From Halarcobacter sp. (GTDB taxonomy: Bacteria; Campylobacterota; Campylobacteria; Campylobacterales; Arcobacteraceae): a stretch of 64,000 nucleotides of DNA. The notes beneath the pieces were generated by a model that worked only from the letters and a program-made list of their open reading frames with translations, did not search any database and had not been told where the DNA came from. Every line of letters starts with the position of its first letter. Position 1 is the stretch's first letter. The stretch lies in contig OY781089.1 of the NCBI GenBank assembly GCA_963676565.1, forward strand, positions 2,528,001 through 2,592,000. Reading direction: 5' to 3'. Of the stretch, positions 34,480-47,878 are shown one piece after another. The position numbers were made by a program, and so were the translations under genes.

Positions 34480-36453
34480 ATGACTAGATCTTATTATTCT
34501 AATAGCATTAAAATTTTTTTGAATGATGACATAGATAAAATATTAGGTCAACTCACAAGAAAACATAGTCACTCGTTAGATGATTTACAAAAAAATGCCT
34601 GGATAAAACAAATTGATATTTTGAAATCAACATTTAAAAATACCCATAGAGGTCATATTTTCTTTGAATTTGCCATTCCTAGAATGGGTAAAAGAGTTGA
34701 TAATATTGTTATTATTGATGATTCAATCTTTATAATAGAATTTAAAGTTGGAGCTAATAAATATGAAAACTATGCAATAGAACAAGTTTTAGATTATTCT
34801 AATGACTTAAAAAATTTTCACGAAGGGAGTCATCACAATAAGATATTTCCAATATTAGTATCTACAGAATCTGATTATATTAATAATAAGATTGAAACTC
34901 TTCAAGACTTATTATTTAAACCATTACTTGCAAATAAAGATAATATTACAGAATCTATAGAAAAATGCTTAGAATATAATCAAATGAAACCTATTGATCC
35001 TCTTCAATGGTCTAATTCAATTTATAAACCAACTCCTACAATTATTGAAGCTGCACAAGCACTATACAAAGGCCATGATGTAAAAGAAATATCACGTTCT
35101 GACTCTGGTGCAATAAATTTAACTAGAACAACAGAAAGTATAAATAGAATTATTGAAAATTCAAAAAATAATAATTTAAAATCTATATGTTTTATAACTG
35201 GTGTTCCTGGTGCAGGGAAAACACTTGCTGGACTCAATATTGCTAATGAAAGAATGAATATTGATAAAAATGAGCATGCTGTTTTCTTATCTGGAAATGG
35301 TCCCCTAGTAGATGTTCTAAGAGAAGCCCTTACTAGAGATGAAGTTAAAAATGCAAGTAATTCTGGAAAAAAATTAACAAAAAAAGAAGCTGCAATTAAA
35401 GCTAATTCATTTATTCAAAATATCCATCATTTTAGAGATGATGCACTTATGAATAATAAGGCGCCAATAGAAAAAGTTGTAGTATTTGATGAAGCACAAA
35501 GAGCTTGGAATGAAAAACAAACTAGTTCATTTATGAAAAGAAAAAAAGGTCACGATAATTTTAATTCATCAGAGCCTAACTTTTTAATAAATGTTATGAA
35601 TAGACATCAAAATTGGTGTACTATTATTTGTTTAATTGGAGGAGGACAAGAAATCAACACAGGTGAAGCTGGTCTTGAAGAATGGGTAAATTCACTAAAA
35701 CATAATTTCAAAGACTGGAATATTTTTTACTCAAATTTAATTGTTCAAGATGAAAACTATTTAAATAATTTAGAACTAAAGCAATGGTTAATAAATAATG
35801 CAAAAGTAGAGAAAGATCTCCATTTAGCTGTATCAGTTCGTTCTTTTAGGTCAGAAAGATTATCAGAATTTATACATTTATTATTAACTTTAGACTTAAA
35901 TAAATGTAGAGAAATTTATTCAAAGTATTTGAAAAAAGCTTATCCTATTAAAATCACAAGAAACTTTGAAAATGCTAAACAATGGTTAAAACAACATGCT
36001 ATTGGAAGTGAAAGAAATGGAATATTAGCTTCTTCTGGAGCATATAGGTTAAGACCACATGGTATTAATGTAAAGAATCAAATAGACGCTCCCATTTGGT
36101 TTTTAAACGATAAGTACGATATTAGGTCATCTTATTTTAATGAAGAAGTTGCAACAGAATTTGATGTTCAAGGATTAGAATTAGATTGGATATGTGTTTG
36201 TTGGGATGGGGACTTCTATCTAAAAAACAATAAATGGGTATATAGAAAATTCAAAGGTACCAAATGGCAAAATGTTAATCAAGATATAATTAAGAATTAT
36301 TTATTAAATGCTTATAGAGTTTTACTTACTAGAGCTAGACAAGGTATGATCATTTTTATCCCTTATGGAACAAATGATGATTCGACAAGATTAAATGAGT
36401 TTTATGATGAAACCTTTGAATATTTAACACAAATTGGAATAGAAGAAATTTAA
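34480..36453 (+). CDS. DUF2075 (Schlafen group-3-type) helicase with an N-terminal PD-(D/E)XK/NERD-like nuclease domain
   Basis: RVD-x9-IIEFK; Walker A GVPGAGKT; FDEAQR; QGLELD; YRVLLTRAR. Confidence 0.8.
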   Translation: MTRSYYSNSIKIFLNDDIDKILGQLTRKHSHSLDDLQKNAWIKQIDILKSTFKNTHRGHIFFEFAIPRMGKRVDNIVIIDDSIFIIEFKVGANKYENYAIEQVLDYSNDLKNFHEGSHHNKIFPILVSTESDYINNKIETLQDLLFKPLLANKDNITESIEKCLEYNQMKPIDPLQWSNSIYKPTPTIIEAAQALYKGHDVKEISRSDSGAINLTRTTESINRIIENSKNNNLKSICFITGVPGAGKTLAGLNIANERMNIDKNEHAVFLSGNGPLVDVLREALTRDEVKNASNSGKKLTKKEAAIKANSFIQNIHHFRDDALMNNKAPIEKVVVFDEAQRAWNEKQTSSFMKRKKGHDNFNSSEPNFLINVMNRHQNWCTIICLIGGGQEINTGEAGLEEWVNSLKHNFKDWNIFYSNLIVQDENYLNNLELKQWLINNAKVEKDLHLAVSVRSFRSERLSEFIHLLLTLDLNKCREIYSKYLKKAYPIKITRNFENAKQWLKQHAIGSERNGILASSGAYRLRPHGINVKNQIDAPIWFLNDKYDIRSSYFNEEVATEFDVQGLELDWICVCWDGDFYLKNNKWVYRKFKGTKWQNVNQDIIKNYLLNAYRVLLTRARQGMIIFIPYGTNDDSTRLNEFYDETFEYLTQIGIEEI

Positions 36454-37271
36454 TTAAAACTTTCTAAATATTTAGCCACAGCATCTTCATCATTTGTATA
36501 AGAGGAAACATATGTAGCTATTTTTTTTAAGTCGTCATGGGCATTAGAAACTGCAACACTAGTTTGAGCAAGTTCGAACATTCCCATATCATTTAAATTA
36601 TCACCAAAAACTGTAAAATCTTTATAATCAACTTGCATCAACTCATGAACAGTTTTTAATCCATGGGCTTTATCTGCATCTTTATGTAAAATTGTTAGAA
36701 AATAACATCCCATATAAGCTTCTGGAGCTAAAATAGATTTAATTTCATCTTTAAAAATAGAATGAATATTTTCTTGTAATTGTTGTAATTGCTCTTTTGT
36801 AGAGAAATAAACTATTTTGAAATTCTCTTTCATAGCTTTTATATTGTTAGATTCTTGAAGATTGTCATCCATATGATATCTTTTTATCAACTCATTAGTA
36901 TAACTATTTCTTTGTTTTGGATATAAAAAAGCCTCATTAAGATTTTTATCTTTTAGGGATAAAACAACAGGATAGATTCCAAGTTTTCTTCCACATTCAA
37001 TAATTTCATTTCCAATCTCTTGGGATAAGATTTTCATATCTAAAATCTTTTTTTCAGGAGATACAATTAGTGAACCATCAAGTAAAATCATTGGTGCGTT
37101 TGTATTAAGTCCTTTTAAAAACTGTTCACTTTTTTTATAACTTCTAGCTGTTGCAATACTCATAATATGTTTTTTTGACATATTATTCCAGGTGTTTAAA
37201 CTATAAGGGCTAATAGATAAGTCATTACGTAAAAAAGTGTGGTCAAGATCAGTTAAAAAAAGTTTAGTCAT
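36450..37271 (-). CDS. Cof-type HAD-IIB phosphatase
   Basis: DLDHT, ATAR, K and FGDNLND motifs. Confidence 0.88.
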   Translation of the reverse strand: MTKLFLTDLDHTFLRNDLSISPYSLNTWNNMSKKHIMSIATARSYKKSEQFLKGLNTNAPMILLDGSLIVSPEKKILDMKILSQEIGNEIIECGRKLGIYPVVLSLKDKNLNEAFLYPKQRNSYTNELIKRYHMDDNLQESNNIKAMKENFKIVYFSTKEQLQQLQENIHSIFKDEIKSILAPEAYMGCYFLTILHKDADKAHGLKTVHELMQVDYKDFTVFGDNLNDMGMFELAQTSVAVSNAHDDLKKIATYVSSYTNDEDAVAKYLESFN

Positions 37272-37316
37272 AATTATCCTTCAAATCAATCTTGATAGTG
37301 TATTATTATGCTACTG

Positions 37317-37343
37317 TAGTTTCACTAAAAAATAGTGAAACTA
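37317..37343. terminator. 11-bp inverted repeat downstream of the 187-aa gene
   Basis: TAGTTTCACTA-AAAAA-TAGTGAAACTA; no clear U-tract on the minus strand. Confidence 0.45.
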
Positions 37344-37362
37344 AAAATTTATTGAAGATATA

Positions 37363-37926
37363 TTAAACTGCACCCATAAGTTGTTTTGAGCTTTCCCCTA
37401 CAAAAGTCAACATTTCTTCATATGATGCACTTGCCTCATCTACATCAGTATCAATCAACTCATCATATACTGCTTCAATTTTTTCTTCTTGTTTTTTTAA
37501 TCTCTTCATATCAGATTTCTCTAAATCTGCTAGTTCTAAAAGTTCATTCCAAACAGAGCTTTCATCTAAAGGAAATGCAGTAAATTTGATACCTTCATAC
37601 TCAAAAGTACCAGCTTTTTCTAAATCTGTTACATATAATAGATATAAACCACCAGATACTAAAAAATCTTTATATTTTTCTACTAATGGTGCTAAGTCAT
37701 GAAAACTTTCTAATTCACAAGCAAAAAATTTCATTGTTCCATCAAGAATAGTAATTACTTGTTTTGCCTGAATCTTTGGAGGAAGTTTTCTATCAGGAGA
37801 GATTTGTTTTCCAGGTTCGACTATTAAAGCTCCCCTATATCCATATGTTCCATCACTTAATTCACCTTGAAATGATGGTTGCCATGCTAATTCATTTTCC
37901 TTTAAAAACTCTACGAAATTTGCCAT
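37363..37926 (-). CDS. Acidic hypothetical protein, putatively nif-associated
   Basis: 187-aa ORF with AAGGA SD, preceded by a sigma54-type motif; functional label is inference. Confidence 0.7.
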   Translation of the reverse strand: MANFVEFLKENELAWQPSFQGELSDGTYGYRGALIVEPGKQISPDRKLPPKIQAKQVITILDGTMKFFACELESFHDLAPLVEKYKDFLVSGGLYLLYVTDLEKAGTFEYEGIKFTAFPLDESSVWNELLELADLEKSDMKRLKKQEEKIEAVYDELIDTDVDEASASYEEMLTFVGESSKQLMGAV

Positions 37927-37958
37927 TTTTATTCCTTGTATTTATATTTTCCAATGTA

Positions 37959-37975
37959 ATGCAAGAAATATTCCC
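37959..37975 (-). promoter_or_regulatory. Sigma54 (-24/-12) promoter
   Basis: Minus strand gGG-AATATTTCTT-GCAT, with GC 35 nt before the ATG. Confidence 0.7.
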
Positions 37976-37990
37976 TAAGCTTTTTTTACT

Positions 37991-39547
37991 CTACATAAAC
38001 CTTTCAAAGCTTTGAGGATATGGAGTATTTAATAAATCACCCTTTTGCATAGGTGGAAACAATTCATCATATCTTTTATAGCTAGTTTGGTCTAACCTTC
38101 TAAAAATATGTGTTCTATTTAGCTTGTGTGGATTATCAAGTCCTGCTGATGCAATTATCTCAATAAAACTTTCTAAAGTTACTTCATGAAAATTTGCAAC
38201 TCTTTGTTTTTTGTCTTCGACTACAAGTCCTTTTGCTAATCTTGGATTTTGAGTAGCAACACCCGTTGGGCAAGTATTTTTATGACATTGTAAAGCCTGA
38301 ATACATCCAAGACTTAACATCATTCCTCTAGCACTTGCTACTAAATCAGCCCCAAGAGAGAAGGCTTTAGCTATATCCATTCCATTTAAAATTTTTCCAG
38401 AAGCAACAACTTTAATCTCATCTTTTAAATTAAATCCATTTAAACAATCAACTACAAAAACCAAGGCCTCTCTAAGTGGCATACCAACAGAATTTGTATA
38501 TTCTAAAGGAGCAGCACCAGTTCCACCTTCACCACCATCAACAGTTATAAAATCTGGTCTAATGTTATGTTCAACCATTGCTTTACAAATATCAATAAAT
38601 TCCTCTTTTCTTCCAACACAAAGTTTAAATCCAACGGGCTTTCCTTCAGTTAAATCCCTTAATCTTTTAATAAATTTTAAAAGTCCTAAACTTGAATTAA
38701 AAGCACTGTGTGTTGGTGGAGAATCAACTCTTGTATGTGGTTTAACATCTCTATCCTCAGCTATTTCAAGGGTATTTTTATTTGCTGGTAAAATACCGCC
38801 ATGTCCAGGTTTTGCCCCTTGAGAAAGTTTAATCTCAATCATTTTTACATTTTCATTTAATGCTTTTTTAGTAAATTTTTCTTCATGAAAATTTCCATCT
38901 TCATCTCTACAACCAAAATATCCAGTTCCAATTTGCCATATCAAATCACAATTAGATGCTAAATGATATCTACTTAATCCACCTTCCCCTGTGTTTAAAG
39001 CAAAATTTCCAATTTTAGCGCCATGTCCTAAAGCCATAATAGCATTTGAACTTAAGGCTCCAAAACTCATGGCAGAAATATTTAAAATAGATGAATCATA
39101 TGGGACTTTACAATCACTACCACCTATTAATACTCTTGGACTTAAGTCTAAATCATGGGCTTTTAAAGCATGTAAAGAGTGTCCTATCCACTCATAACCT
39201 TCTTGATAAACATCCATCTTAGTTCCAAAAGGAATTGTACTTTGTTGTTTTTTTGAACGTCTATAAACTACACTTCTTGCTTGTCTATTAATTGGAACCC
39301 CATCCATATCAGATTCAATAAAATATTGTCTAATAGGAGGTCTAAGCTCTTCTAAAACCCATCTCATACGTGCAACTACAGGGAAGTTTCTCCATAAGGC
39401 ATGTTTAGTTTGTTTTGTATCATAAATACCAACTGCAATTAAAACTGCAAATATCAAAGCAAGCCATAAAAATGATAAATCGATAATAGAAAGGATAATT
39501 ATAAAAATAGATCCAAAGATGATAATTTTTTGAAATAGTTTAGGCAT
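37991..39547 (-). CDS. FMN-binding glutamate synthase family protein (stand-alone FMN domain, N-terminal TM)
   Basis: SAMSFGALS, NTGEGG, EIKLSQGAKPG and GCIQALQCHKNTCPTG (3Fe-4S) motifs; likely ATG 39547. Confidence 0.88.
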   Translation of the reverse strand: MPKLFQKIIIFGSIFIIILSIIDLSFLWLALIFAVLIAVGIYDTKQTKHALWRNFPVVARMRWVLEELRPPIRQYFIESDMDGVPINRQARSVVYRRSKKQQSTIPFGTKMDVYQEGYEWIGHSLHALKAHDLDLSPRVLIGGSDCKVPYDSSILNISAMSFGALSSNAIMALGHGAKIGNFALNTGEGGLSRYHLASNCDLIWQIGTGYFGCRDEDGNFHEEKFTKKALNENVKMIEIKLSQGAKPGHGGILPANKNTLEIAEDRDVKPHTRVDSPPTHSAFNSSLGLLKFIKRLRDLTEGKPVGFKLCVGRKEEFIDICKAMVEHNIRPDFITVDGGEGGTGAAPLEYTNSVGMPLREALVFVVDCLNGFNLKDEIKVVASGKILNGMDIAKAFSLGADLVASARGMMLSLGCIQALQCHKNTCPTGVATQNPRLAKGLVVEDKKQRVANFHEVTLESFIEIIASAGLDNPHKLNRTHIFRRLDQTSYKRYDELFPPMQKGDLLNTPYPQSFERFM

Positions 39548-39588
39548 AAGGAAGTCTCTTTTTTTATTTTTATTATACAAAAAAGAGA

Positions 39589-39891
39589 TTAATTAGAAGG
39601 TTTATATTTTTTAGTTATCCTTGCAAAATCATAAAAATCACTTAACATTAAATAGCGAATTTGAATATCTTCAAATTTCTTATGAACTATTTCTAAACCT
39701 TCATTATATAATCTTACATCTTCAATAAATTCATTTGGATAATCAAGCTTTTCCTCTTTTATTTGAGGGAAACATTCCATAAATTGAAAAAAAAGTTTAT
39801 TTACAAGTTCTTTTTTTTCATTGCTTGGTTCTTTTAAAAAACCTTTTAGAGTTTCAAACTCTTTACAAATTTCTACTAAACACTTGTACAT
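39589..39891 (-). CDS. Hypothetical protein, coupled to the ArsC-family gene
   Basis: 100-aa ORF overlapping the upstream stop; RYLMLSDFYDF motif. Confidence 0.65.
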   Translation of the reverse strand: MYKCLVEICKEFETLKGFLKEPSNEKKELVNKLFFQFMECFPQIKEEKLDYPNEFIEDVRLYNEGLEIVHKKFEDIQIRYLMLSDFYDFARITKKYKPSN

Positions 39892-40301
39892 GAATCACTA
39901 CTACTTTGACAAGTACCAATTTGTTTTTTTGTATCAAGTTCTAAATCTAAGACATCATTTAATTTTGCCATATCAAATCCACAAATTTTACTATCATCTA
40001 CAATTATCAAAGGTCTTTTTATTAAAATTGGATCATTAATCATTTTATATATCAATTGTTCTTTGGTGACTGAATTTAAGTCAATTTCACCGTTTTTTAT
40101 CTTTGGAGCAGTTTCATTTACAATTTCATTTTTTTCTAGTCCTACAAAAAATGACTCTAAGGTTTTTTTGTCCCATTTTGTATCAAGTATAGATTTAACT
40201 TCAAACTCAAGACCGTTGGCTTTTAAAAGCTCTTTTTGTTTTTTATTTCCTAAACAACCAGGCTTCTCATAAAAAACAATCTTTTTTTTAACATAAAACA
40301 T
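39876..40301 (-). CDS. ArsC/Spx-family protein of the nitrogenase-associated (NifO-like) type
   Basis: IVFYEKPGCLGNKKQK start; PILIKRPL and GFD motifs; C-terminal Cys pair. Confidence 0.75.
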   Translation of the reverse strand: MFYVKKKIVFYEKPGCLGNKKQKELLKANGLEFEVKSILDTKWDKKTLESFFVGLEKNEIVNETAPKIKNGEIDLNSVTKEQLIYKMINDPILIKRPLIIVDDSKICGFDMAKLNDVLDLELDTKKQIGTCQSSSDSCTSV

Positions 40302-40328
40302 TTTGTCTCCTTCATCCTAATAATCTAT

Positions 40329-40345
40329 ATGCAAATATCATGCCT
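40329..40345 (-). promoter_or_regulatory. Sigma54 (-24/-12) promoter
   Basis: Minus strand aGG-CATGATATTT-GCAT, close to the TGGCAC-N5-TTGC consensus, with GC 30 nt before the ATG. Confidence 0.75.
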
Positions 40346-40356
40346 TTTATTGTTTA

Positions 40357-40373
40357 CGGTATTATTTTTGCAT
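40357..40373 (+). promoter_or_regulatory. Sigma54 (-24/-12) promoter, divergent
   Basis: cGG-TATTATTTTT-GCAT, with GC 35 nt before ATG 40406; a TATAAT overlaps at 40373-40378. Confidence 0.55.
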
Positions 40374-40405
40374 ATAATACTTTTTTTCAATTACAAAGGT
40401 ATTAC

Positions 40406-41578
40406 ATGCTTTCAAAATATTCATTCGGAACTTATAGAACAACTTATCAAAATCCAATTCATAAAGAAGCTTTAAATTTTGCATTAGATAATGGGATTAC
40501 TCATATTGATACTTCATCAAACTATATGCATGGTGAAGCAGAAATTATGATAGGTCAAATAATAGAAAATAGAAATAGAGAAGATTTCACTATTGTTTCA
40601 AAGGGTGGTTATATCCAAGGTGAAAACCTAAAAAGAGTTATGGAAGGCTTTAAAGTTGAAGATTTAGTAAGATATGATGAAAACTGTTTTCACAGTATCC
40701 ATGAAGAGTTTTTAGAAGATCAAATCAATAGAAGTTTAGAAAGATTAAAAACAAACTACATCGATGTCTATCTACTTCATAATCCCGAATACTACTTATT
40801 AAAAGAGATAAAAGTTGGTATGACAGAACAAGCCATCTTAAAACACCACGAGATTATGCAACAAAGAATAAAAAGAGCCTTTGCCTTTTTAGAAGCAAAG
40901 GTTAAAGAAGGAAAAATAAAAGCCTATGGTATTAGCTCAAACTCCTTTGCAAAAAAAAGAATAAATTACCACTTTTTAGAGTATAAACACTTAATAAACT
41001 ATGCAAAAGAGATTGCAGGAGATAATCACAATTTTAAAGTAATACAATTGCCTATGAATATGTTTGAAAATGATGGTGAAGAGTGTGCAAAATGGGCCCA
41101 TGAAAATGGTTTAGAAGTTCATATTAATAGACCATTAAATGCGATGAAAGAGGATAGAATGATTAGGCTTGCTTCATATGAAGAGTGTATAAATTATGAT
41201 TCCCTTTTAGCTCAAATTAGAGAAATAAATAATGATGCCTTTCAAGAGGTTATTGACCAGATTTTAAAAATAGAAAATGATTACAGATGGGCTGGCGATG
41301 TTGATGATATATTAGAGTATCAAGTAATCCCTTATATTGTTCAAAATATCAATCTTGACCCAGTTTATTTTCAATTAGTTGATAACTTTTTAAACTGTTA
41401 TAAAAGTAATATAAAAAGTAGAATTTCAAAAGAAGTAGCAAAGGAAATAAATATAAATGGTCCAATAGATGGTGTTGCTTTAAAATATTTGGAACAAAAA
41501 GAGTATGTTACAAGAATACTTGTGGGGATGAGAGATAAAAGATATGTAAAAAAGATTTTAGATTACTCTAAAATCTAA
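40406..41578 (+). CDS. Aldo/keto reductase family protein
   Basis: FGTY, IDTSSNY, SLERLKTNYIDVYLLHNP, YGISSN and ILVGMR motifs; likely ATG 40406 after AAGG. Confidence 0.85.
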   Translation: MLSKYSFGTYRTTYQNPIHKEALNFALDNGITHIDTSSNYMHGEAEIMIGQIIENRNREDFTIVSKGGYIQGENLKRVMEGFKVEDLVRYDENCFHSIHEEFLEDQINRSLERLKTNYIDVYLLHNPEYYLLKEIKVGMTEQAILKHHEIMQQRIKRAFAFLEAKVKEGKIKAYGISSNSFAKKRINYHFLEYKHLINYAKEIAGDNHNFKVIQLPMNMFENDGEECAKWAHENGLEVHINRPLNAMKEDRMIRLASYEECINYDSLLAQIREINNDAFQEVIDQILKIENDYRWAGDVDDILEYQVIPYIVQNINLDPVYFQLVDNFLNCYKSNIKSRISKEVAKEININGPIDGVALKYLEQKEYVTRILVGMRDKRYVKKILDYSKI

Positions 41579-42454
41579 TCTTTTAAGCTCTCTTTTTTTA
41601 TACCATTGTAGTAAAATATATGAGATTATAATTGCTGCAATGGTTCTAATTACTACAACCATAGTAAAATCAGCACCAAATATTACAAACAATAAAGTAT
41701 CTTCAATAACTGCGTGACAAATCATCAAAAAAGTACCTATATAGAAAATATCATCCTTAGAGATATTTCCACTTTCAACCTCTTTTATTAAAATTCCAGC
41801 TCCATAAGTAATACCTAAAATTATACCAACAGTAATAGAAAAACCTTTACTAACATTTTTTTGTGATTGTTTAATAAACTTTCTACTTTTTATGAAATCC
41901 ATCAAAAAAATCAATGCAGTTATTAAAATAATTACTGTGATACTTAATTCAATTGAATTTAAAATAGAACTTTGCAATAAATCACCAATACTTTCATATG
42001 TTTGTTTTTCAAACACAGAATCAGTTAAACTTGCACTAAAAAGTTTTGCAGGTAATAATGAAGTAAAAAAAGCAACTATAAAAGCACTAATTATCCTAAG
42101 GCTATATGAATAAAAATTACCTATTCCAATTTTTTTCATAATTACACCTTCTACAGGAAGTGCATGTGCAATACCTACAAAAACAGCTAAAATCGACCAC
42201 TGGTGAATAGTTAAATCCAATGGTGCAGCAAAAGCAACAGAAGCATAAACATTTAAAAACATTCCACTAATAATTGCAAGTGAAGTTTCAGGTGGCAAAC
42301 CAATTATTGAAGTAAATGGTTCTATTAAAAAACTAACATAGGATAAAGTATTATAGTAAAATAGTATATCTGCAATAATATAAATAGGTATGATTAGCTT
42401 TAAAACTATCCATGCACTTTTTATTGATGATTTGAAACTTTCTTTGTAATTCAT
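41558..42454 (-). CDS. Nucleoside-recognition (Gate) domain membrane protein
   Basis: Duplicated HALPVEG / HAVIEDT helices, GITYGAG, multiple TMs. Confidence 0.75.
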   Translation of the reverse strand: MNYKESFKSSIKSAWIVLKLIIPIYIIADILFYYNTLSYVSFLIEPFTSIIGLPPETSLAIISGMFLNVYASVAFAAPLDLTIHQWSILAVFVGIAHALPVEGVIMKKIGIGNFYSYSLRIISAFIVAFFTSLLPAKLFSASLTDSVFEKQTYESIGDLLQSSILNSIELSITVIILITALIFLMDFIKSRKFIKQSQKNVSKGFSITVGIILGITYGAGILIKEVESGNISKDDIFYIGTFLMICHAVIEDTLLFVIFGADFTMVVVIRTIAAIIISYILLQWYKKRELKRLDFRVI

Positions 42455-42457
42455 AAA

Positions 42458-43417
42458 TTAAGCTAAGCCATTTACAATATTTATTGGTTTTTTACCATCA
42501 AGAACTCTTTTTACATTTAGAGCAGCTTTTTGTCTCATCTCAAAATAAGCTTTATCACTATAAAAAGCAGAATGTGGATTAATCATAAATCTTCCATCAA
42601 GCCACTTTTCTTTTGCTTTCCAAGCATCTATCATTTTTCCACTTACTGGCGGTTCACTTGGAAGAACATCTAAACTAACACAATTTAAATGTCCAGATTT
42701 TAAAGGTTCATAAAAAACATCTAAATCTTTTACAATAGCACCACGTGCAGTATTTACAAGTGAACTTCCTGGTTTCATTTTAGAGATAAACTCTTCATCA
42801 ATCATTGCATTTGTCTCTTTATTTAAAGGAGCATTTATAGAGATAATATCGCAAGTTTCAAGTAATTCGTCAAGATTGTCAAATCTTTTTGCACCAAGCA
42901 TTTTTTCAGTTCCACTTGAAAGATATGGATCATAAAAATGTGTTTGAAATCTTAGGGCATTTGCTTTTAATAAAACACTTCCCCCTATTCTTCCTGCTCC
43001 AATAACACCAAGCTTATAATCGCTTGTTCTTTTGATATATTTTAATGTATTAGTTTGCCATGTTCCATCATCATACTCTCTACATTGATAATCATATCTA
43101 GTAATTCCACGGGCAATATTCATAATCATAGCAATTGATGTATCACTTACTTCATCTGTACCATAATCAGGTGTATTTGAAGCATAAATCCCTTTTGATT
43201 TAATATATTCCAAATCTTGAAACACATCATAACCTACACCGTATCTAACTAAAGCTTTTAGATTTGGTAGTTTATCAATAAATTCATTTGTAATTTTATG
43301 ATGCCAAACTAAAAGTACCTCTATACCCTCATGAAGTTCAGATGATAATTCATCCCCTAAAACATCTCTTTCAATATCAGGGTTTGTAACCTTATCTGTA
43401 ATATAAACTCTTTTCAT
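42458..43417 (-). CDS. D-isomer-specific 2-hydroxyacid dehydrogenase (CtBP-like)
   Basis: GVGYD, GAGRIG, NTARG, DVLPSEP and PHSAFYS motifs. Confidence 0.9.
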   Translation of the reverse strand: MKRVYITDKVTNPDIERDVLGDELSSELHEGIEVLLVWHHKITNEFIDKLPNLKALVRYGVGYDVFQDLEYIKSKGIYASNTPDYGTDEVSDTSIAMIMNIARGITRYDYQCREYDDGTWQTNTLKYIKRTSDYKLGVIGAGRIGGSVLLKANALRFQTHFYDPYLSSGTEKMLGAKRFDNLDELLETCDIISINAPLNKETNAMIDEEFISKMKPGSSLVNTARGAIVKDLDVFYEPLKSGHLNCVSLDVLPSEPPVSGKMIDAWKAKEKWLDGRFMINPHSAFYSDKAYFEMRQKAALNVKRVLDGKKPINIVNGLA

Positions 43418-43487
43418 AATATCTCCAAAATATCTATAAATATTAGCTTGATATTTTAGTTAAATATTGCAAAAAGTTAAGAATTTT

Positions 43488-44192
43488 TTACTCAATTATT
43501 CTTTTAGCTAGTTTTTCTATAACTTTCTTTTTTAGGATATGAATATCACTTTGCTTTACCCATAACAAGGCTTCTTTTTTATAATATTCTAAAATAAGAG
43601 GGTCAATAGATTCTTTTTTTTCATCCATTTTTTGTAAAAAATCTTTTAATTCTCCTTCATCAAAATCTTCAAATTTTTCTAACTTAAAATATAAAGCTTC
43701 TAAGAAATCATTATCGATAAAATCTTTACTTCTTTTTAAAAACTTTGTAGCTTCTGTTTCTAAAGCTTTTATATCATTCCATTTTCTTCCAGTTTTAAGC
43801 TGGTCAATTGCTACAGGTAAAAACACAGGAACTAGATCTAAAACTTGATTTAACTCACTAAAATCATTATCAACCATAGATCTAAAAAGCATTCTAGTTC
43901 TGTTTCTAATTTTTACTCTTAGATTATCATCTTTTATTACATCTTTATGAATTAACTGAAATCTTCTAAGAGCAGGTAATTTTGAGTGATTAAAAGCCAT
44001 AATAGAAACAAGTGGGGCACTATCAGCTATTTGCTCCTCCCTTGAGCCATTTGGTCTACAAAATGCCCAATAAAGCCTAGCTTCCATATCTTCATGATTT
44101 AGATATTTTTCATCCCCTAAGCTTTCAAAATCATCCTCATCTTTTAGTAGTTCTACTTCATCTTTATATGTTAAATTGAATAACTCTTCCAA
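43488..44192 (-). CDS. Hypothetical protein, putatively nif-associated
   Basis: Likely TTG start 44192 after AAGG, overlapping the VWA gene stop; ARLYWAFCRP and IMAFNHS motifs. Confidence 0.7.
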   Translation of the reverse strand: MEELFNLTYKDEVELLKDEDDFESLGDEKYLNHEDMEARLYWAFCRPNGSREEQIADSAPLVSIMAFNHSKLPALRRFQLIHKDVIKDDNLRVKIRNRTRMLFRSMVDNDFSELNQVLDLVPVFLPVAIDQLKTGRKWNDIKALETEATKFLKRSKDFIDNDFLEALYFKLEKFEDFDEGELKDFLQKMDEKKESIDPLILEYYKKEALLWVKQSDIHILKKKVIEKLAKRIIE

Positions 44193-45384
44193 AACGTTCA
44201 AACCTTTTAATATTTTTTTTCTCACTTATTATAAATAGTGTCTTACAAACTAAACTTTCATACATCTCAAATTCACCATCAGTTAAAACCATAAGTAAGT
44301 TATCACTTCTGATATCACTTGATTTTTTTAAATATCTTAAAACTTCATCAAAATTTGTTCCACCATCACTTTTAGGGATAAAAAGTTCTTTTTCTATCAA
44401 GGGATTAAAGGAATCAAACTCGATTATATGCTCCTCTTTAACTTTTAAATCAAAAGGAAGAACCTTTACTTTATATTCATAGAAACCTTCACAAACATCT
44501 TTTACTACCCCTAGAAATTTTTTATATTCATCAAGGGTAACACTTGAACTACTATCAAGTGCTATAAAAACCTCAATCATCTCGTCACTTTTTTTATTCC
44601 CAGGTAAATACAATCCACTATGAACAAATTTTCTATTTGGCCTTGAGTAAGTTGATGTTTTTTCAAACAGTGATGAGATTAAATACTCTTTTAAAGTATC
44701 TTGTAGTGAAATTTCAGGTTTTATTAAAGTATCTATTTCAATTTGCATTCCCTGATACTCTTTTGAACTTTTTTTAGCTATTGAAAGTGCTTGTATTATG
44801 ATTCCATCTAATTTTTCTCTATCACCACTACTTGTATTTTCATCATTTACCTCTTCTATATCCATCTTTGATTCATCATAGATATAAGCTTTTAATTTAC
44901 CATCTTCTTTTGGTTTAGTTTTTATCTCATCATCTTTTTTTTCTTCTGAAGAGCTTTCATTTTTTTCTTCTTCTTTTCTAAGGATTTCATAGACCTCTTC
45001 AACACATTTATTTTCTAAGTCTAAATCTAATATCTCATCAGTTGGCATTTTCCCTATATTTGAGAAACTATATAAAACCAAATTTGTAACTAAATCACAA
45101 GCTTGATTCCAAAGTTTTTTCTCTCTTGTTCTTTGTCTAAAGGGGTGTTTTAAAACTATGTGTAAAAGTGTGTGGGCATAAAGATAAGTTATCTCATCAC
45201 TAGAATAACTTTGTAGTTTTTTTAAATCAATAAATATCTCTTTACCATTAGTTTGAAATGCACTATTACTATTATCTTTAAAACTAGTTGGAATTGATAA
45301 TGCTAATACAGAAAGAAAGGGATGGTTAAATAAAAAGTTAATCCTTATTTTCTGAAAAACTTCATCATATGATATACTCACCAT
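44164..45384 (-). CDS. DUF2201-type protein: degenerate metallopeptidase-like N-domain plus VWA domain
   Basis: HTLLH at the HExxH position, WNQACD, MIDAS LDSSSS, GGTNF, LTDG. Confidence 0.82.
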   Translation of the reverse strand: MVSISYDEVFQKIRINFLFNHPFLSVLALSIPTSFKDNSNSAFQTNGKEIFIDLKKLQSYSSDEITYLYAHTLLHIVLKHPFRQRTREKKLWNQACDLVTNLVLYSFSNIGKMPTDEILDLDLENKCVEEVYEILRKEEEKNESSSEEKKDDEIKTKPKEDGKLKAYIYDESKMDIEEVNDENTSSGDREKLDGIIIQALSIAKKSSKEYQGMQIEIDTLIKPEISLQDTLKEYLISSLFEKTSTYSRPNRKFVHSGLYLPGNKKSDEMIEVFIALDSSSSVTLDEYKKFLGVVKDVCEGFYEYKVKVLPFDLKVKEEHIIEFDSFNPLIEKELFIPKSDGGTNFDEVLRYLKKSSDIRSDNLLMVLTDGEFEMYESLVCKTLFIISEKKNIKRFERFGRVIQFNI

Positions 45385-46372
45385 ACTGCTCCATCCAAGT
45401 ATCAAACTCTTCAAGTTCTGCTATATCTTCATCTTTGACTATTAAATCTTTAATAAGCATCACATTAAACTCAACTGGAAGATGATTTGCATATTTAAAT
45501 AAATTCTTTCCTTGAGAATTCCCTTTATATTTTTCAATTATTGCTGCACATAAAGCATATAAAGCACTAGGTTCGTCTGGAACAACATCACTTTCTCCTT
45601 CCAAGATAGCATCAATATCAGGTAACGTTTTATAAACTTTTACAAAAGAGATAAACTCAATGCCTGCACCATATCCAACAGTTCCGTAAACAACTGGATG
45701 AATACAATTTAGATCTTCATTCTTTTTTAAAATATTGGATAACATATTCCATGCTCTTGGTGTACAAAAAGCTGGATTTGTTTCAGTTGAACTTGGTACC
45801 TCATTACTTAATAAATCTGGACGAAAGCCTAAAAAACCTATAACAAAAGGATGTATCTCATTTTTGATTGCCCAAATTTTAAAATCATCATATTTAGCTT
45901 CCAAAACAATATGTACCATCCTATTAATAAGTGGACTTGGAAGTTTAAAAACAATACCTTTATCATCTATTTTATTTCCAGCACAAATGATTCTCCAACC
46001 CCTAGGCAGTGTGTACTCACCAATTTTCCTATCTAAAACCAACTGATAAATTGCAGCTTGAACTGAAAGTGGAGCTGAGTTTAACTCATCTAAAAAAAGT
46101 ATTCCTTCAGAATCTTCATTGGAGGGTAAAAAAATTGGTGGCATCCATTTTGTTTGATTATTAGATATTGTAGGAATTCCCCTTAAATCAACTGCATCAA
46201 GTTGAGAAAGTCTTACATCTATAAGCTTTAAATCATTTTGTTTTGCAATATCATTTACAATATATGATTTTCCAATTCCTGGACTACCATGGATAAATAA
46301 AGGTATATCTACATCTATTAAAACTTGGATTTGTTTATATAATTCAGTTGTTCCTATAGAAGGTGTAATCAT
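45365..46372 (-). CDS. MoxR-like AAA+ ATPase
   Basis: GSPGIGKS, DLRGIP, LFLDELN, CAGN, LINRM and TPRAW motifs. Confidence 0.88.
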   Translation of the reverse strand: MITPSIGTTELYKQIQVLIDVDIPLFIHGSPGIGKSYIVNDIAKQNDLKLIDVRLSQLDAVDLRGIPTISNNQTKWMPPIFLPSNEDSEGILFLDELNSAPLSVQAAIYQLVLDRKIGEYTLPRGWRIICAGNKIDDKGIVFKLPSPLINRMVHIVLEAKYDDFKIWAIKNEIHPFVIGFLGFRPDLLSNEVPSSTETNPAFCTPRAWNMLSNILKKNEDLNCIHPVVYGTVGYGAGIEFISFVKVYKTLPDIDAILEGESDVVPDEPSALYALCAAIIEKYKGNSQGKNLFKYANHLPVEFNVMLIKDLIVKDEDIAELEEFDTWMEQYGEYII

Positions 46373-46380
46373 TATTTATC

Positions 46381-46569
46381 CTATGAAAGTTTTAGCTCTT
46401 TTAGTATCTCTTGTAAATCTTTATTTAAATCGGTGATTTTTTCTAGAACTTTATCTTTTTGCTCATTTGACATTGAAAATTTGCTATCAATATTTTCATA
46501 AATTTTTAAAGAGTCAGTAAAAATCTTTTGCATCAAATCTTGTTTTATTTTTTCTTCTAAAATACCCAT
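46381..46569 (-). CDS. Small helical hypothetical protein
   Basis: 62 aa, AAGGAG SD, within the operon. Confidence 0.7.
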   Translation of the reverse strand: MGILEEKIKQDLMQKIFTDSLKIYENIDSKFSMSNEQKDKVLEKITDLNKDLQEILKELKLS

Positions 46570-46582
46570 AATATCTCCTTGA

Positions 46583-46965
46583 TTAAACTTTTTTTAGAAA
46601 GCTAGCTAAATCACTATCCATACTTATTAGATGTAAATCAAACCAATCTGGAAGCTTTTGTATATAGTAAGCTTTTAATAGTTGCTTACCAATAGAAGTG
46701 TTACTTTTTTCTAAAAAAAACTGCATCTCATGTAGTACTTTTTGATGTTCCTCTTTATGCTCTCTTGAAGTTGGATAATTAAATTGATCCATTTGTAATT
46801 CTTCATAAAAAAATGTCTTTTTGTATGTTCTATTAACTCTTTTGTTTTATTTATTATACTGCCAATTGAATTGCTGTCTGCACCATTATAAATCTGAACA
46901 AACTCTTTATGAATCTCATCCATTTCATTGTGTTTTAGAAGATGCTTATTATCTTTAAATTCCAT
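46583..46965 (-). pseudogene. Single-domain bacteriohemerythrin split by a frameshift in a T7 tract
   Basis: MDEIH, HF-x2-EE, HKEEH and H-x4-D ligands lie in two frames; one extra T at 46807-46813 gives an intact 127-aa ORF. Confidence 0.8.
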
Positions 46966-46994
46966 ATTTTTCTTACCATATTTTTAAAGCTTAT

Positions 46995-47011
46995 ATGCAA
47001 TAACTATACCC
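46995..47011 (-). promoter_or_regulatory. Sigma54 (-24/-12) promoter
   Basis: Minus strand gGG-TATAGTTATT-GCAT, with GC 32 nt before the hemerythrin ATG. Confidence 0.7.
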
Positions 47012-47062
47012 CATTGAAAAAACTCTTTTAAACAATGTTTTGTATAATGTATTTTTTAATAA

Positions 47063-47173
47063 GAGCAACTCGTTGCTCACTTTAGAATTTGCTTCTTTAA
47101 AAAGAGTTTATCTCTTTTGCTAAAAGAAGTGTAATATTTAGGTCCCTTTAAAAATAGGGATTATTTTTAAAGG
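47063..47173 (+). promoter_or_regulatory. Structured leader or repeat element upstream of sfsA (three hairpins)
   Basis: Inverted repeats at 47063-47078, 47092-47129 and 47145-47173; the last covers the SD. Confidence 0.55.
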
Positions 47174-47179
47174 AAATTT

Positions 47180-47878
47180 ATGCAATTTGAAAAACTTATA
47201 CATGGAAAACTAATAAAAAGATATAAAAGATTTTTAGCAGATATTATACTTGATGATGGAAGTGAAATAACTGCCCATGTTCCAAATAGTGGTGCAATGA
47301 CAAGTTGTATTGAAGAAAATTGTGATGTTTGGGTTACACACCATGATAATCCAAAAAGAAAACTAAAATATACCCTTGAACTTACTCGTATGGGTGATAA
47401 CTTAATCTGTACAAATACAGGTGTTGCAAATAAAATTGCAATCGAAGCAATTGAAAATGGCGTAATAACTGAATTACAAGATTATGATAATCTAAAACCA
47501 GAACAAAAATATGGAAATCAAAACAGTAGAATTGATATTTTATTGTGGAATAACAATAGTGATAAAAAATGTTTTGTTGAGATTAAAAGTGTAAGTTTAA
47601 ACCTTGGTGATACCTTAGCATTTCCAGATGCCAAGACAACTAGAGGTCAAAAACATTTAGAAGAGTTAAGAGATATGGTGCAAGAAGGTCATAGAGCAGT
47701 AATGCTTTATATAATCCAAAGAACAGATAATCTTCCTTTTAGAATAGCACATGAAATTGATAAAAAATATAATGAGATTTTTGAAGAGGTAATAAAACAA
47801 GGTGTGGAAGTTTTAGTTTATCAATCTGATATAAATCATGAAGAGATAAATGTAGTAAAAAAAGTAGAATTTAAGTAA
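47180..47878 (+). CDS. sfsA: DNA/RNA nuclease SfsA
   Basis: RYKRFLAD, HVPNSG, SRID, VEIKSV and FPDAKTTRGQKHL motifs. Confidence 0.95.
   Translation: MQFEKLIHGKLIKRYKRFLADIILDDGSEITAHVPNSGAMTSCIEENCDVWVTHHDNPKRKLKYTLELTRMGDNLICTNTGVANKIAIEAIENGVITELQDYDNLKPEQKYGNQNSRIDILLWNNNSDKKCFVEIKSVSLNLGDTLAFPDAKTTRGQKHLEELRDMVQEGHRAVMLYIIQRTDNLPFRIAHEIDKKYNEIFEEVIKQGVEVLVYQSDINHEEINVVKKVEFK

Follow-up and report, generated by a model that had tools for sequence, protein, structure and literature searches.

Four probable sigma-54 promoters remote from the nif island of a nitrogen-fixing Halarcobacter and the nitrogenase-associated gene families behind them

The control of nitrogen fixation (nif) genes by the activator NifA and sigma-54 (RpoN) is textbook knowledge for Proteobacteria, in which the -24 promoter element follows the consensus TGGCAC; sigma-54 promoters cannot fire without an enhancer-binding activator. 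Campylobacter and Helicobacter are known for a flagellar sigma-54/FlgR regulon, and NifO has a role in molybdenum partitioning in Azotobacter. Mesorhizobium loti R7A has a NifA-RpoN regulon with an island-borne rpoN2 (PMC3538637), and NorQ/NorD is reported to be a pair of a MoxR AAA+ and a VWA protein that inserts the non-heme iron cofactor into nitric oxide reductase (PMC9976466). The present analysis deals with four short intergenic sites, P1 to P4, and the genes behind them in a 64,000-nucleotide stretch of the genome of Halarcobacter sp. (the window, G000:C1:2528001-2592000; positions are given in window numbering unless marked G000:C1); the genome (G000) is a single contig of 3.34 Mb with 28.4% G+C. 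These sites are very probably genuine sigma-54 (-24/-12) promoters that make up an outlying part of the NifA/sigma-54 regulon in a nitrogen-fixing Halarcobacter. Support comes from the motifs, their spacing and conservation, their absence in relatives devoid of sigma-54, the sole rpoN and nifA of the genome, and the co-occurrence and co-location of the genes with nif.

As in the proteobacterial NifA-RpoN regulons, a NifA of GAF-AAA+-HTH architecture and sigma-54 are combined with -24/-12 promoters at nif and at scattered accessory genes and, as in M. loti R7A, an rpoN copy sits on the nif/symbiosis island. Unlike the bacteria with those regulons, the present member of the Campylobacterota (Arcobacteraceae) has no rpoN besides the island copy and no activator besides NifA; in addition, its -24 element reads GGAAC/T or GGYAT instead of TGGCAC, a TGT-N10-ACA enhancer was not found, and most of the remote targets belong to families without annotation. 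The flagellar sigma-54/FlgR regulon occurs in the same phylum and employs the same sigma factor family, but rpoN of the Arcobacteraceae was found in nifH-positive genomes only and NifA, not FlgR, is the sole activator. The NifA/sigma-54 control of nif as such is known; the present case is distinguished by a nif-dedicated sigma-54 in the Arcobacteraceae, the lack of a canonical upstream activating sequence and the uncharacterised accessory families. A literature search on rpoN, nifA or sigma-54 with nitrogenase in Arcobacter, including Arcobacter nitrofigilis, found nothing, and the parts of PMC11265409 and PMC12316311 reached by a term search contain no mention of rpoN in Arcobacteraceae or Campylobacterota.

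A preliminary description of the window had listed four intergenic GG-N10-GC motifs whose GC was placed 35, 30, 35 and 32 nucleotides (nt) before a start codon. All four are present with the positions and orientations reported there, the distances (counted from the C of the GC) are the same, and each start codon is an ATG. P1 (GGAATATTTCTTGCAT, 37959..37974, minus strand) lies 35 nt before the gene of a conserved protein of 187 amino acids (aa), p187, with an expected transcription start at about 37949; P2 (GGCATGATATTTGCAT, 40329..40344, minus strand) lies 30 nt before the gene of an ArsC-like protein and back-to-back with P3 (GGTATTATTTTTGCAT, 40358..40373, plus strand), which precedes the ATG of an aldo/keto reductase (AKR) gene at 40406 by 35 nt; P4 (GGTATAGTTATTGCAT, 46995..47010, minus strand) is found 32 nt before the ATG of a hemerythrin gene. 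At all four sites GG and GC are exactly 10 nt apart and the -12 element conforms to TTGCW. With regard to the genes assigned to these motifs, those named in the preliminary description exist, but the 529-aa Glu_synthase gene of the ArsC operon had been omitted and the hemerythrin gene consists of two frameshifted open reading frames (ORFs).

The motif GG-N8-TTGCAT occurs eight times in the window versus 1.45 copies expected (standard deviation 1.18, largest value 5; 0 of 100 shuffles reached 8). P1 to P4 are its only intergenic copies, in line with the preliminary description, which found none in the other intergenic regions it had inspected, and the remaining four (154-, 16537+, 26445+ and 45477+) are all located inside ORFs. 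The whole genome contains 127 copies, 33 of them outside the ORF calls; 16 are well placed: they lie between genes, point towards an ORF of at least 50 aa that starts with ATG, and end 20-60 nt before this ATG (eight in the nif island, four in the window, four elsewhere). Control counts of well-placed sites amounted to 0-3 for spacers of 4-7 and 9-12 nt and to 0-7 for seven permuted motifs; only at a spacer of 8 nt is there an excess. At a great distance from the nif island, the motif GGAATAGTTATTGCAT is positioned 34 nt before a nifS-nifU operon (G000:C1:1581419, plus strand). Three further well-placed motifs at G000:C1:590767 (+), 1756600 (-) and 2599691 (+; 7.7 kb past the window end) stand before ORFs of 111, 130 and 156 aa, respectively, without Pfam family, which are further candidates for the regulon.

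Orthologous regions were retrieved by blastn of window positions 36400-47200 against 25 genus genomes and inspected by tblastn and motif scans. All 9 relatives with the hemerythrin operon carry the motif in front of it, as do all 11 with a p187 orthologue and all 10 with the ArsC operon in front of the respective gene or operon; among Campylobacterota loci in general, GG-N8-TTGCAT precedes p187 in 34 of 79 cases. The sole invariant block in the alignment of the hemerythrin upstream regions of 10 genomes, which has a mean column identity of 51%, is GGnATAnnnnTTGCAT. Five rpoN-containing genus genomes possess 9, 14, 15, 15 and 14 copies of the pattern GGAAYANNNNTTGCAT (GGAAYA-N4-TTGCAT), clustered at the nif islands and the orthologous loci, versus 6, 5, 7, 5 and 3 copies in five rpoN-less genus genomes, none of which reads GGAACAC.

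The nif genes, regarded as sigma-54-driven in the preliminary description, bear the same promoter type in this genome, and rpoN, nifA and nifHDK are all encoded; the characterisation of the locus as lacking the nif core is true of the window, but the core is encoded elsewhere on the contig, at a distance of about 1.8 Mb. This nif island (approximately 694.7-749.6 kb of G000:C1) comprises nifV, nifB, nifX, nifE, nifN, a second nifX, nifW, a flavodoxin gene, rpoN, nifH, nifD, nifK, modEABC, nifT, nifA and a ClpX gene, the latter in a sigma-54-driven operon (G000:C1:746618-748730) together with genes of a SIR2-like and a GNAT protein. Twelve intergenic island sites match GGAAC/T-N6-[TG]TGCAT; in 10 of these 12, including those of nifH, nifB, nifE, nifN, nifX and nifV, the GC is positioned 31-57 nt before the start codon. 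Two island promoter pairs are arranged back-to-back and divergently like P2/P3 (G000:C1:697715(-)/697738(+) and 702811(-)/702836(+); window 40344(-)/40358(+)), and since merely 13-24 nt separate the GG dinucleotides of such pairs, there is no intergenic room for a shared enhancer. The rpoN gene (G000:C1:723541-724794; NF004602, 554.8 bits) is located beside nifH. A six-frame search of the genome with PF00158 yielded one true sigma-54 activator, NifA (260 bits; the other six matches reached at most 30 bits), which contains GAF, sigma-54 AAA+ and HTH_8 domains and scores 518 bits on TIGR01817, slightly below the cut-off of 528.85. As the sole activator of the genome, and because sigma-54 depends on one, NifA would by elimination be the activator of these promoters.

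The distribution of rpoN was examined in a family sample of 151 genomes (53 nifH-positive, 98 nifH-negative) and an order sample of 301 genomes (65 nifH-positive, 236 nifH-negative). In the family sample, rpoN is present in 52 of 53 nifH-positive versus 0 of 98 nifH-negative genomes; the single nifH-positive genome without rpoN match (G122) is an assembly of 350 contigs. Most families of the order sample retain rpoN with or without nif. The 16 nifH-positive genomes of family f23 are exactly the 16 genomes with two rpoN matches, while in families f1 and f6 the sets of rpoN-positive and nifH-positive genomes are identical. These patterns, together with that of the Arcobacteraceae, indicate that the nif islands of Campylobacterales bring their own rpoN, which in the Arcobacteraceae is the only copy. 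With a single sigma-54 and a single activator, this genome allows its complete sigma-54 regulon to be deduced from the sequence.

The product of the gene behind P1, p187 (37363..37926, minus strand), is nif-associated and has no Pfam or NCBIfam match. Members of its family were found in 46 of 53 nifH-positive versus 2 of 98 nifH-negative genomes of the family sample (both exceptions are fragmented assemblies) and in 32 of 65 versus 2 of 236 genomes of the order sample. Together with the corresponding counts for the ArsC profile and the VWA orthologue (see below), these values bear out the preliminary proposal that the hypothetical genes would follow nifH. The gene is located between rpoN and nifH in G144, G040 and L069 and adjoins nifS_epsilon on its downstream side in 22 of the 80 loci from Campylobacterota, 4 of which also have nifB close by; it neighbours nifH, rpoN, nifS or nifV in other genomes. 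The named homologues of p187 and of p100, the small protein encoded in the ArsC operon, that were retrieved from a word index all belong to Campylobacterota and are all annotated as 'hypothetical'. In a profile search of 1.84 billion representatives, 110 relatives of p187 were found at E<=0.001; the named distant ones originate from Thioflexithrix, Sulfuricella, Sulfurimicrobium and Sphingomonas, and share YRG, PP, DE[SG]xVWNE and LEKxDxK motifs as well as a G[AP]V C-terminus.

The genomic context of the distant relatives was represented by four loci retrieved with one query protein; the link to Proteobacteria is based on two metagenome contigs because only two of the four had useful flanks. 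On contig L123, of proteobacterial type, the p187 homologue is followed by DraG (TIGR02662, 455 bits) and a TIGR01616 protein (161 bits), and further on by a sensor kinase, a GGDEF regulator and a hemerythrin; on contig L125 it is followed by modE, a porin gene, modA, mop, modB and modC. The statement in the preliminary description that the hypothetical proteins resemble ORFs of proteobacterial nif islands is weakly supported, and for the 187-aa protein only; homologues of the 100-aa protein were found only in Campylobacterota. Contigs L122 (positions 1-88) and L123 (positions 1-80), which carry the Sulfuricella-type p187 homologue, terminate in a heptanucleotide tandem repeat, (TGAGGAG)n or (TGATGAG)n, that leaves about 50 nt before the gene; because of this repeat the promoter region is not readable in either.

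An AlphaFold2 model of p187 (pLDDT 87.5, pTM 0.83) gave no Foldseek match in the PDB at E<=0.001, the best being McrC (2.9e-3, TM 0.29); the best Z score among 48,161 chains compared by VIA-align was 3.9, and the ESM Atlas contained no match of at least 0.9. The C-terminus of p187 is formed by the invariant sequence GESSKQLMGAV; given the ClpX operon of the nif island, this tail might conceivably be a degradation tag. The gene is followed by a palindromic hairpin (37317..37343), which according to a consensus scan is a likely terminator.

The ArsC-like protein behind P2 (141 aa; 39876..40301, minus strand) exceeds the cut-off of TIGR01616 'nitrogenase-associated protein' (116.9 bits; cut-off 109), in agreement with the association of NifO-type ArsC proteins with nitrogenase put forward in the preliminary description. 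No exchange of C16, C107 or C131 occurs in the alignment, and C138 is nearly invariant. Like NifO/TIGR01616 elsewhere it tracks nifH (39 of 53 nifH-positive versus 1 of 98 nifH-negative family genomes), is found within approximately 25 kb of nifH in genus g18 and has its counterpart beside DraG on contig L123; unlike NifO/TIGR01616 elsewhere, it is translationally coupled to p100, the 100-aa protein found in Campylobacterota only, and linked to p187 and hemerythrin. The start of the p100 gene (39589..39891, minus strand) overlaps the ArsC gene by 16 nt. In p100, C9 is invariant and C4 and C40 are nearly invariant according to the alignment; 109 homologues were collected. A complex prediction for the ArsC-like protein and p100 gave no answer (score 0.00) and is uninformative on binding either way.

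The gene of the 529-aa protein with the flavin mononucleotide (FMN)-binding Glu_synthase domain (37991..39580, minus strand; PF01645, 286.8 bits) begins 8 nt after p100 and is probably co-transcribed with ArsC-p100 in the present genome. It is absent at this place in G120, G056, G147 and G152, where p187 directly follows ArsC-p100, and present in the nif-negative genomes G126 and G138; we read it as a variable passenger of the ArsC operon. The aldo/keto reductase family protein encoded on the opposite strand (390 aa; 40406..41578, plus strand; PF00248, 106.5 bits) shares 29% identity with an AKR-like protein whose gene, in the nif island, is sigma-54-driven as well.

The operon behind P4 starts with a bacteriohemerythrin gene (46583..46965, minus strand), which is divided into two overlapping ORFs by a frameshift, a 1-nt deletion, in a run of seven T (46807-46813). 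Both halves match hemerythrin models (NF033749, E 6e-10; TIGR02481, E 5e-9; NF002522), but as a consequence of this split they score below the respective cut-offs. In two near-identical strains one extra base at the T7 run restores the frame (71 of 153 depth in X2, where the T run is lengthened, and 107 of 107 in X3, where a different base is found), and the orthologues of the relatives are single-frame; the frameshift represents either an assembly error or a strain-specific pseudogene. The following gene encodes a protein of 62 aa, p62 (46381..46569, minus strand). A 61-aa ORF at G000:C1:697783-697968, which opens a sigma-54-driven operon beside nifB, shows a weak similarity to p62 (29% over 45 aa, E 3e-4 within the proteome).

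Next in the operon are the genes of a MoxR-type AAA+ ATPase (AAA_5; 45365..46372, minus strand; PF07728, 29.1 bits, cut-off 22) and of a VWA partner with DUF2201_N and DUF2201 domains (44164..45414, minus strand; PF13203, 85.4 bits, and PF09967, 33.9 bits, both above cut-off), which overlap by 50 nt. The ATPase contains the Walker A sequence GSPGIGKS and the Walker B sequence LFLDE, and its closest solved sequences are midasin and MoxR 2r44. The VWA protein possesses a DSSSS MIDAS-like motif and, in the N-terminal metallopeptidase-like domain, the sequence HTLLH; no sequence match was found among solved structures. The order of the two genes, AAA_5 ATPase before VWA-domain protein, is that of NorQ/NorD; unlike NorQ/NorD, the VWA partner is of the DUF2201 type, and hemerythrin and two uncharacterised proteins are encoded on either side of the pair, downstream of a sigma-54 promoter. 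The literature search on MoxR and DUF2201 listed no paper that contains DUF2201. The VWA orthologue (at least 55% identity) occurs in 29 of 53 nifH-positive versus 1 of 98 nifH-negative genomes of the family sample, in which a paralogue of 23-29% identity is widespread. A second MoxR/VWA pair at G000:C1:491492-493656 shows identities of 42% and 23% to that of the window; none of the sigma-54 motif matches listed belongs to it. The last conserved gene of the operon encodes an acidic protein of 245 aa, p245 (43488..44225, minus strand); the 2-hydroxyacid dehydrogenase gene and the 'Gate' membrane protein gene beyond it are not conserved neighbours and are present in nif-negative genomes.

The ArsC and hemerythrin operons of the window appear to be parts of one module, because runs of hemerythrin-ArsC-p100-p187 occur in L061, L063 and L065, four genomes of genus g11 carry the ArsC gene past the VWA gene, at a distance of approximately 750 nt, and a paralogue of the C-terminal half of p245 opens the ArsC operon in 8 relatives. 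In the proposed mechanism, the nif island provides the only sigma-54 and the only enhancer-binding activator, NifA, of the cell; active NifA would then enable sigma-54 RNA polymerase to open the four window promoters. The resulting transcripts would encode p187 alone, the NifO-like ArsC protein with p100 and (in this strain) the glutamate-synthase-like flavoprotein, the aldo/keto reductase, and hemerythrin-p62-MoxR-VWA-p245. As to the biochemical roles of these proteins, we infer that hemerythrin, the TIGR01616 protein and p187 act as one functional module, which together with the MoxR/VWA remodelling pair may support nitrogenase by metal-centre insertion or repair or by oxygen or redox protection. 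By analogy with NorQ/NorD, the MoxR/VWA pair might remodel or load the metal centre of a nitrogenase-related client; hemerythrin might sense or buffer oxygen or iron, and the cysteine-rich ArsC-like/p100 pair might be engaged in thiol or metal chemistry. The interpretation of the preliminary description, a co-regulated nitrogenase support module, is supported by the data presented here, and its oxygen protection part would be one conceivable function of this module.

A more far-reaching proposal is made tentatively, with doubt somewhat outweighing confidence: hemerythrin, the NifO-like ArsC protein and p187 might constitute an unrecognised system of nitrogenase maturation or protection, joined in Campylobacterota by p100 and MoxR-VWA-p245, conserved across Campylobacterales, represented by its core trio beside DraG in sulfur-oxidising Proteobacteria and switched on by the nif-island sigma-54, which in the Arcobacteraceae is dedicated to nitrogen fixation; p187 would then be a Nif accessory protein of new fold.

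That the motifs are chance matches or parts of sigma-70 promoters, without any sigma-54 regulon, is extremely improbable. The genome has 28% G+C and the 3' half of the motif is AT-rich, and a simple sigma-70 scan was uninformative, its 65 promoter-like sites corresponding to the shuffle level of 64.4, so that an overlap with such promoters could occur; however, an excess is seen at one spacing only, orthologous regions that otherwise diverge retain GG and GC without exception, enrichment is restricted to rpoN-containing genomes and the identical motif is situated before nifH, nifB, nifE and nifN. A restriction to three functional sites is better conceivable, though still unlikely: P3, the weakest case of the four as judged from the sequence comparison, would be a by-product of the divergent neighbour promoter or part of a sigma-70 promoter (TTGCATATAAT contains TATAAT). 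Indeed, the canonical GC is retained at P3 only in G000, G141 and G129, the AKR is not nif-specific, and an element of this kind is missing upstream of its homologues in G135 and G123, both of which lack rpoN. On the other hand, the site of the former three genomes is fully canonical at a typical distance of 35 nt, GGTAT-N5-TTG-AT is kept at equal distance in the relatives, and the nif island contains both a sigma-54-fronted AKR-like paralogue and the two similar back-to-back pairs. Alternatively, the promoters could be real and dependent on NifA/sigma-54 while the genes serve not nitrogenase but another task, such as redox, iron or stress housekeeping, that is required when nitrogen is limiting or oxygen is low. 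The strict nif linkage of rpoN and nifA in the family would be in favour of this explanation, since any sigma-54-dependent gene would be lost or silenced along with nif; in addition, many diazotrophs do not contain the module (VWA is present in only 29 of 53 family genomes, p187 in only 32 of 65 of the order), the genome has a paralogous MoxR/VWA pair at another locus, and the nitrogenase function is putative for every protein of the set. We nevertheless consider it improbable: p187 and TIGR01616 are found inside nif clusters of several lineages, beside nifH, nifS, nifV, nifB or DraG, and these lineages include families with a second, non-nif rpoN, in which sigma dependence would not force the linkage.

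The assignment of the four sites to a NifA/sigma-54 regulon in the service of nitrogen fixation has to be weighed against several observations. The canonical NifA site TGT-N10-ACA is absent in the 300 nt upstream of 20 of the 21 promoters examined, comprising all four window promoters and 11 of the 12 of the nif island, and a dyad search (3-mers with gaps of 0-16 nt; 20 upstream versus 1500 background regions) revealed no enriched motif (best p 2e-4 over approximately 35,000 patterns). Only 13 nt separate the GG dinucleotides of P2 and P3, so any enhancer would have to be located within a coding region. Six other relatives read GGTAT-N5-TTGTAT at the P3 position, i.e. GT replaces the -12 GC, and AKR homologues, there lacking the motif, also occur in nif-negative genomes. 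The promoters are read from sequence, and two oligo-dT RNA runs of 'organism B' with 1 and 0 reads provide no test; the designation intergenic depends on our own greedy ORF calls, by which 93.5% of the genome is called coding. With respect to the genes, the hemerythrin frame is broken in the present assembly, p187 is lacking in 7 of 53 and the VWA orthologue in 24 of 53 nifH-positive family genomes, and G129, the closest relative, no longer possesses p187 or the hemerythrin operon; the module is thus not universal among the diazotrophs of the group. Finally, the co-occurrence with nifH could partly reflect dependence of expression on the island sigma-54 instead of a role in nitrogenase function.

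Under the favoured reading, in which P1 to P4 belong to the NifA/sigma-54 regulon, a short list of new candidate nitrogenase helpers emerges: p187 with no fold match, the NifO-like thiol protein with its small partner, and the hemerythrin-MoxR-VWA machine. Such helpers are of interest with regard to the assembly of nitrogenase and its survival in the vicinity of oxygen, and for attempts at transferring nitrogen fixation to other hosts; in addition, nif islands of Campylobacterales carry their own rpoN. The Arcobacteraceae are widespread marine and salt-marsh bacteria tolerating some oxygen, and four of the DNA runs considered are labelled as salt marsh metagenome.

Rfam and tRNA scans of the region gave no matches. 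Between P4 and sfsA, an element of approximately 120 nt (47054-47190) with three predicted hairpins (z -2.5) was detected; three more copies of 76-79% identity are present in this genome and many in all genomes of the genus, including nif-negative ones, and the spacer between sfsA and the hemerythrin gene is much shorter in relatives without it. At the contig end of one relative (L020, G126:C105, last ~50 nt) the sequence resembles what we take to be a sequencing-adapter remnant, an assembly artefact of that contig and not of the window. Just upstream of the region, a 657-aa protein with a Schlafen-group-3-like DNA/RNA helicase domain is encoded at 34480-36453, which is unrelated to the promoters described here.

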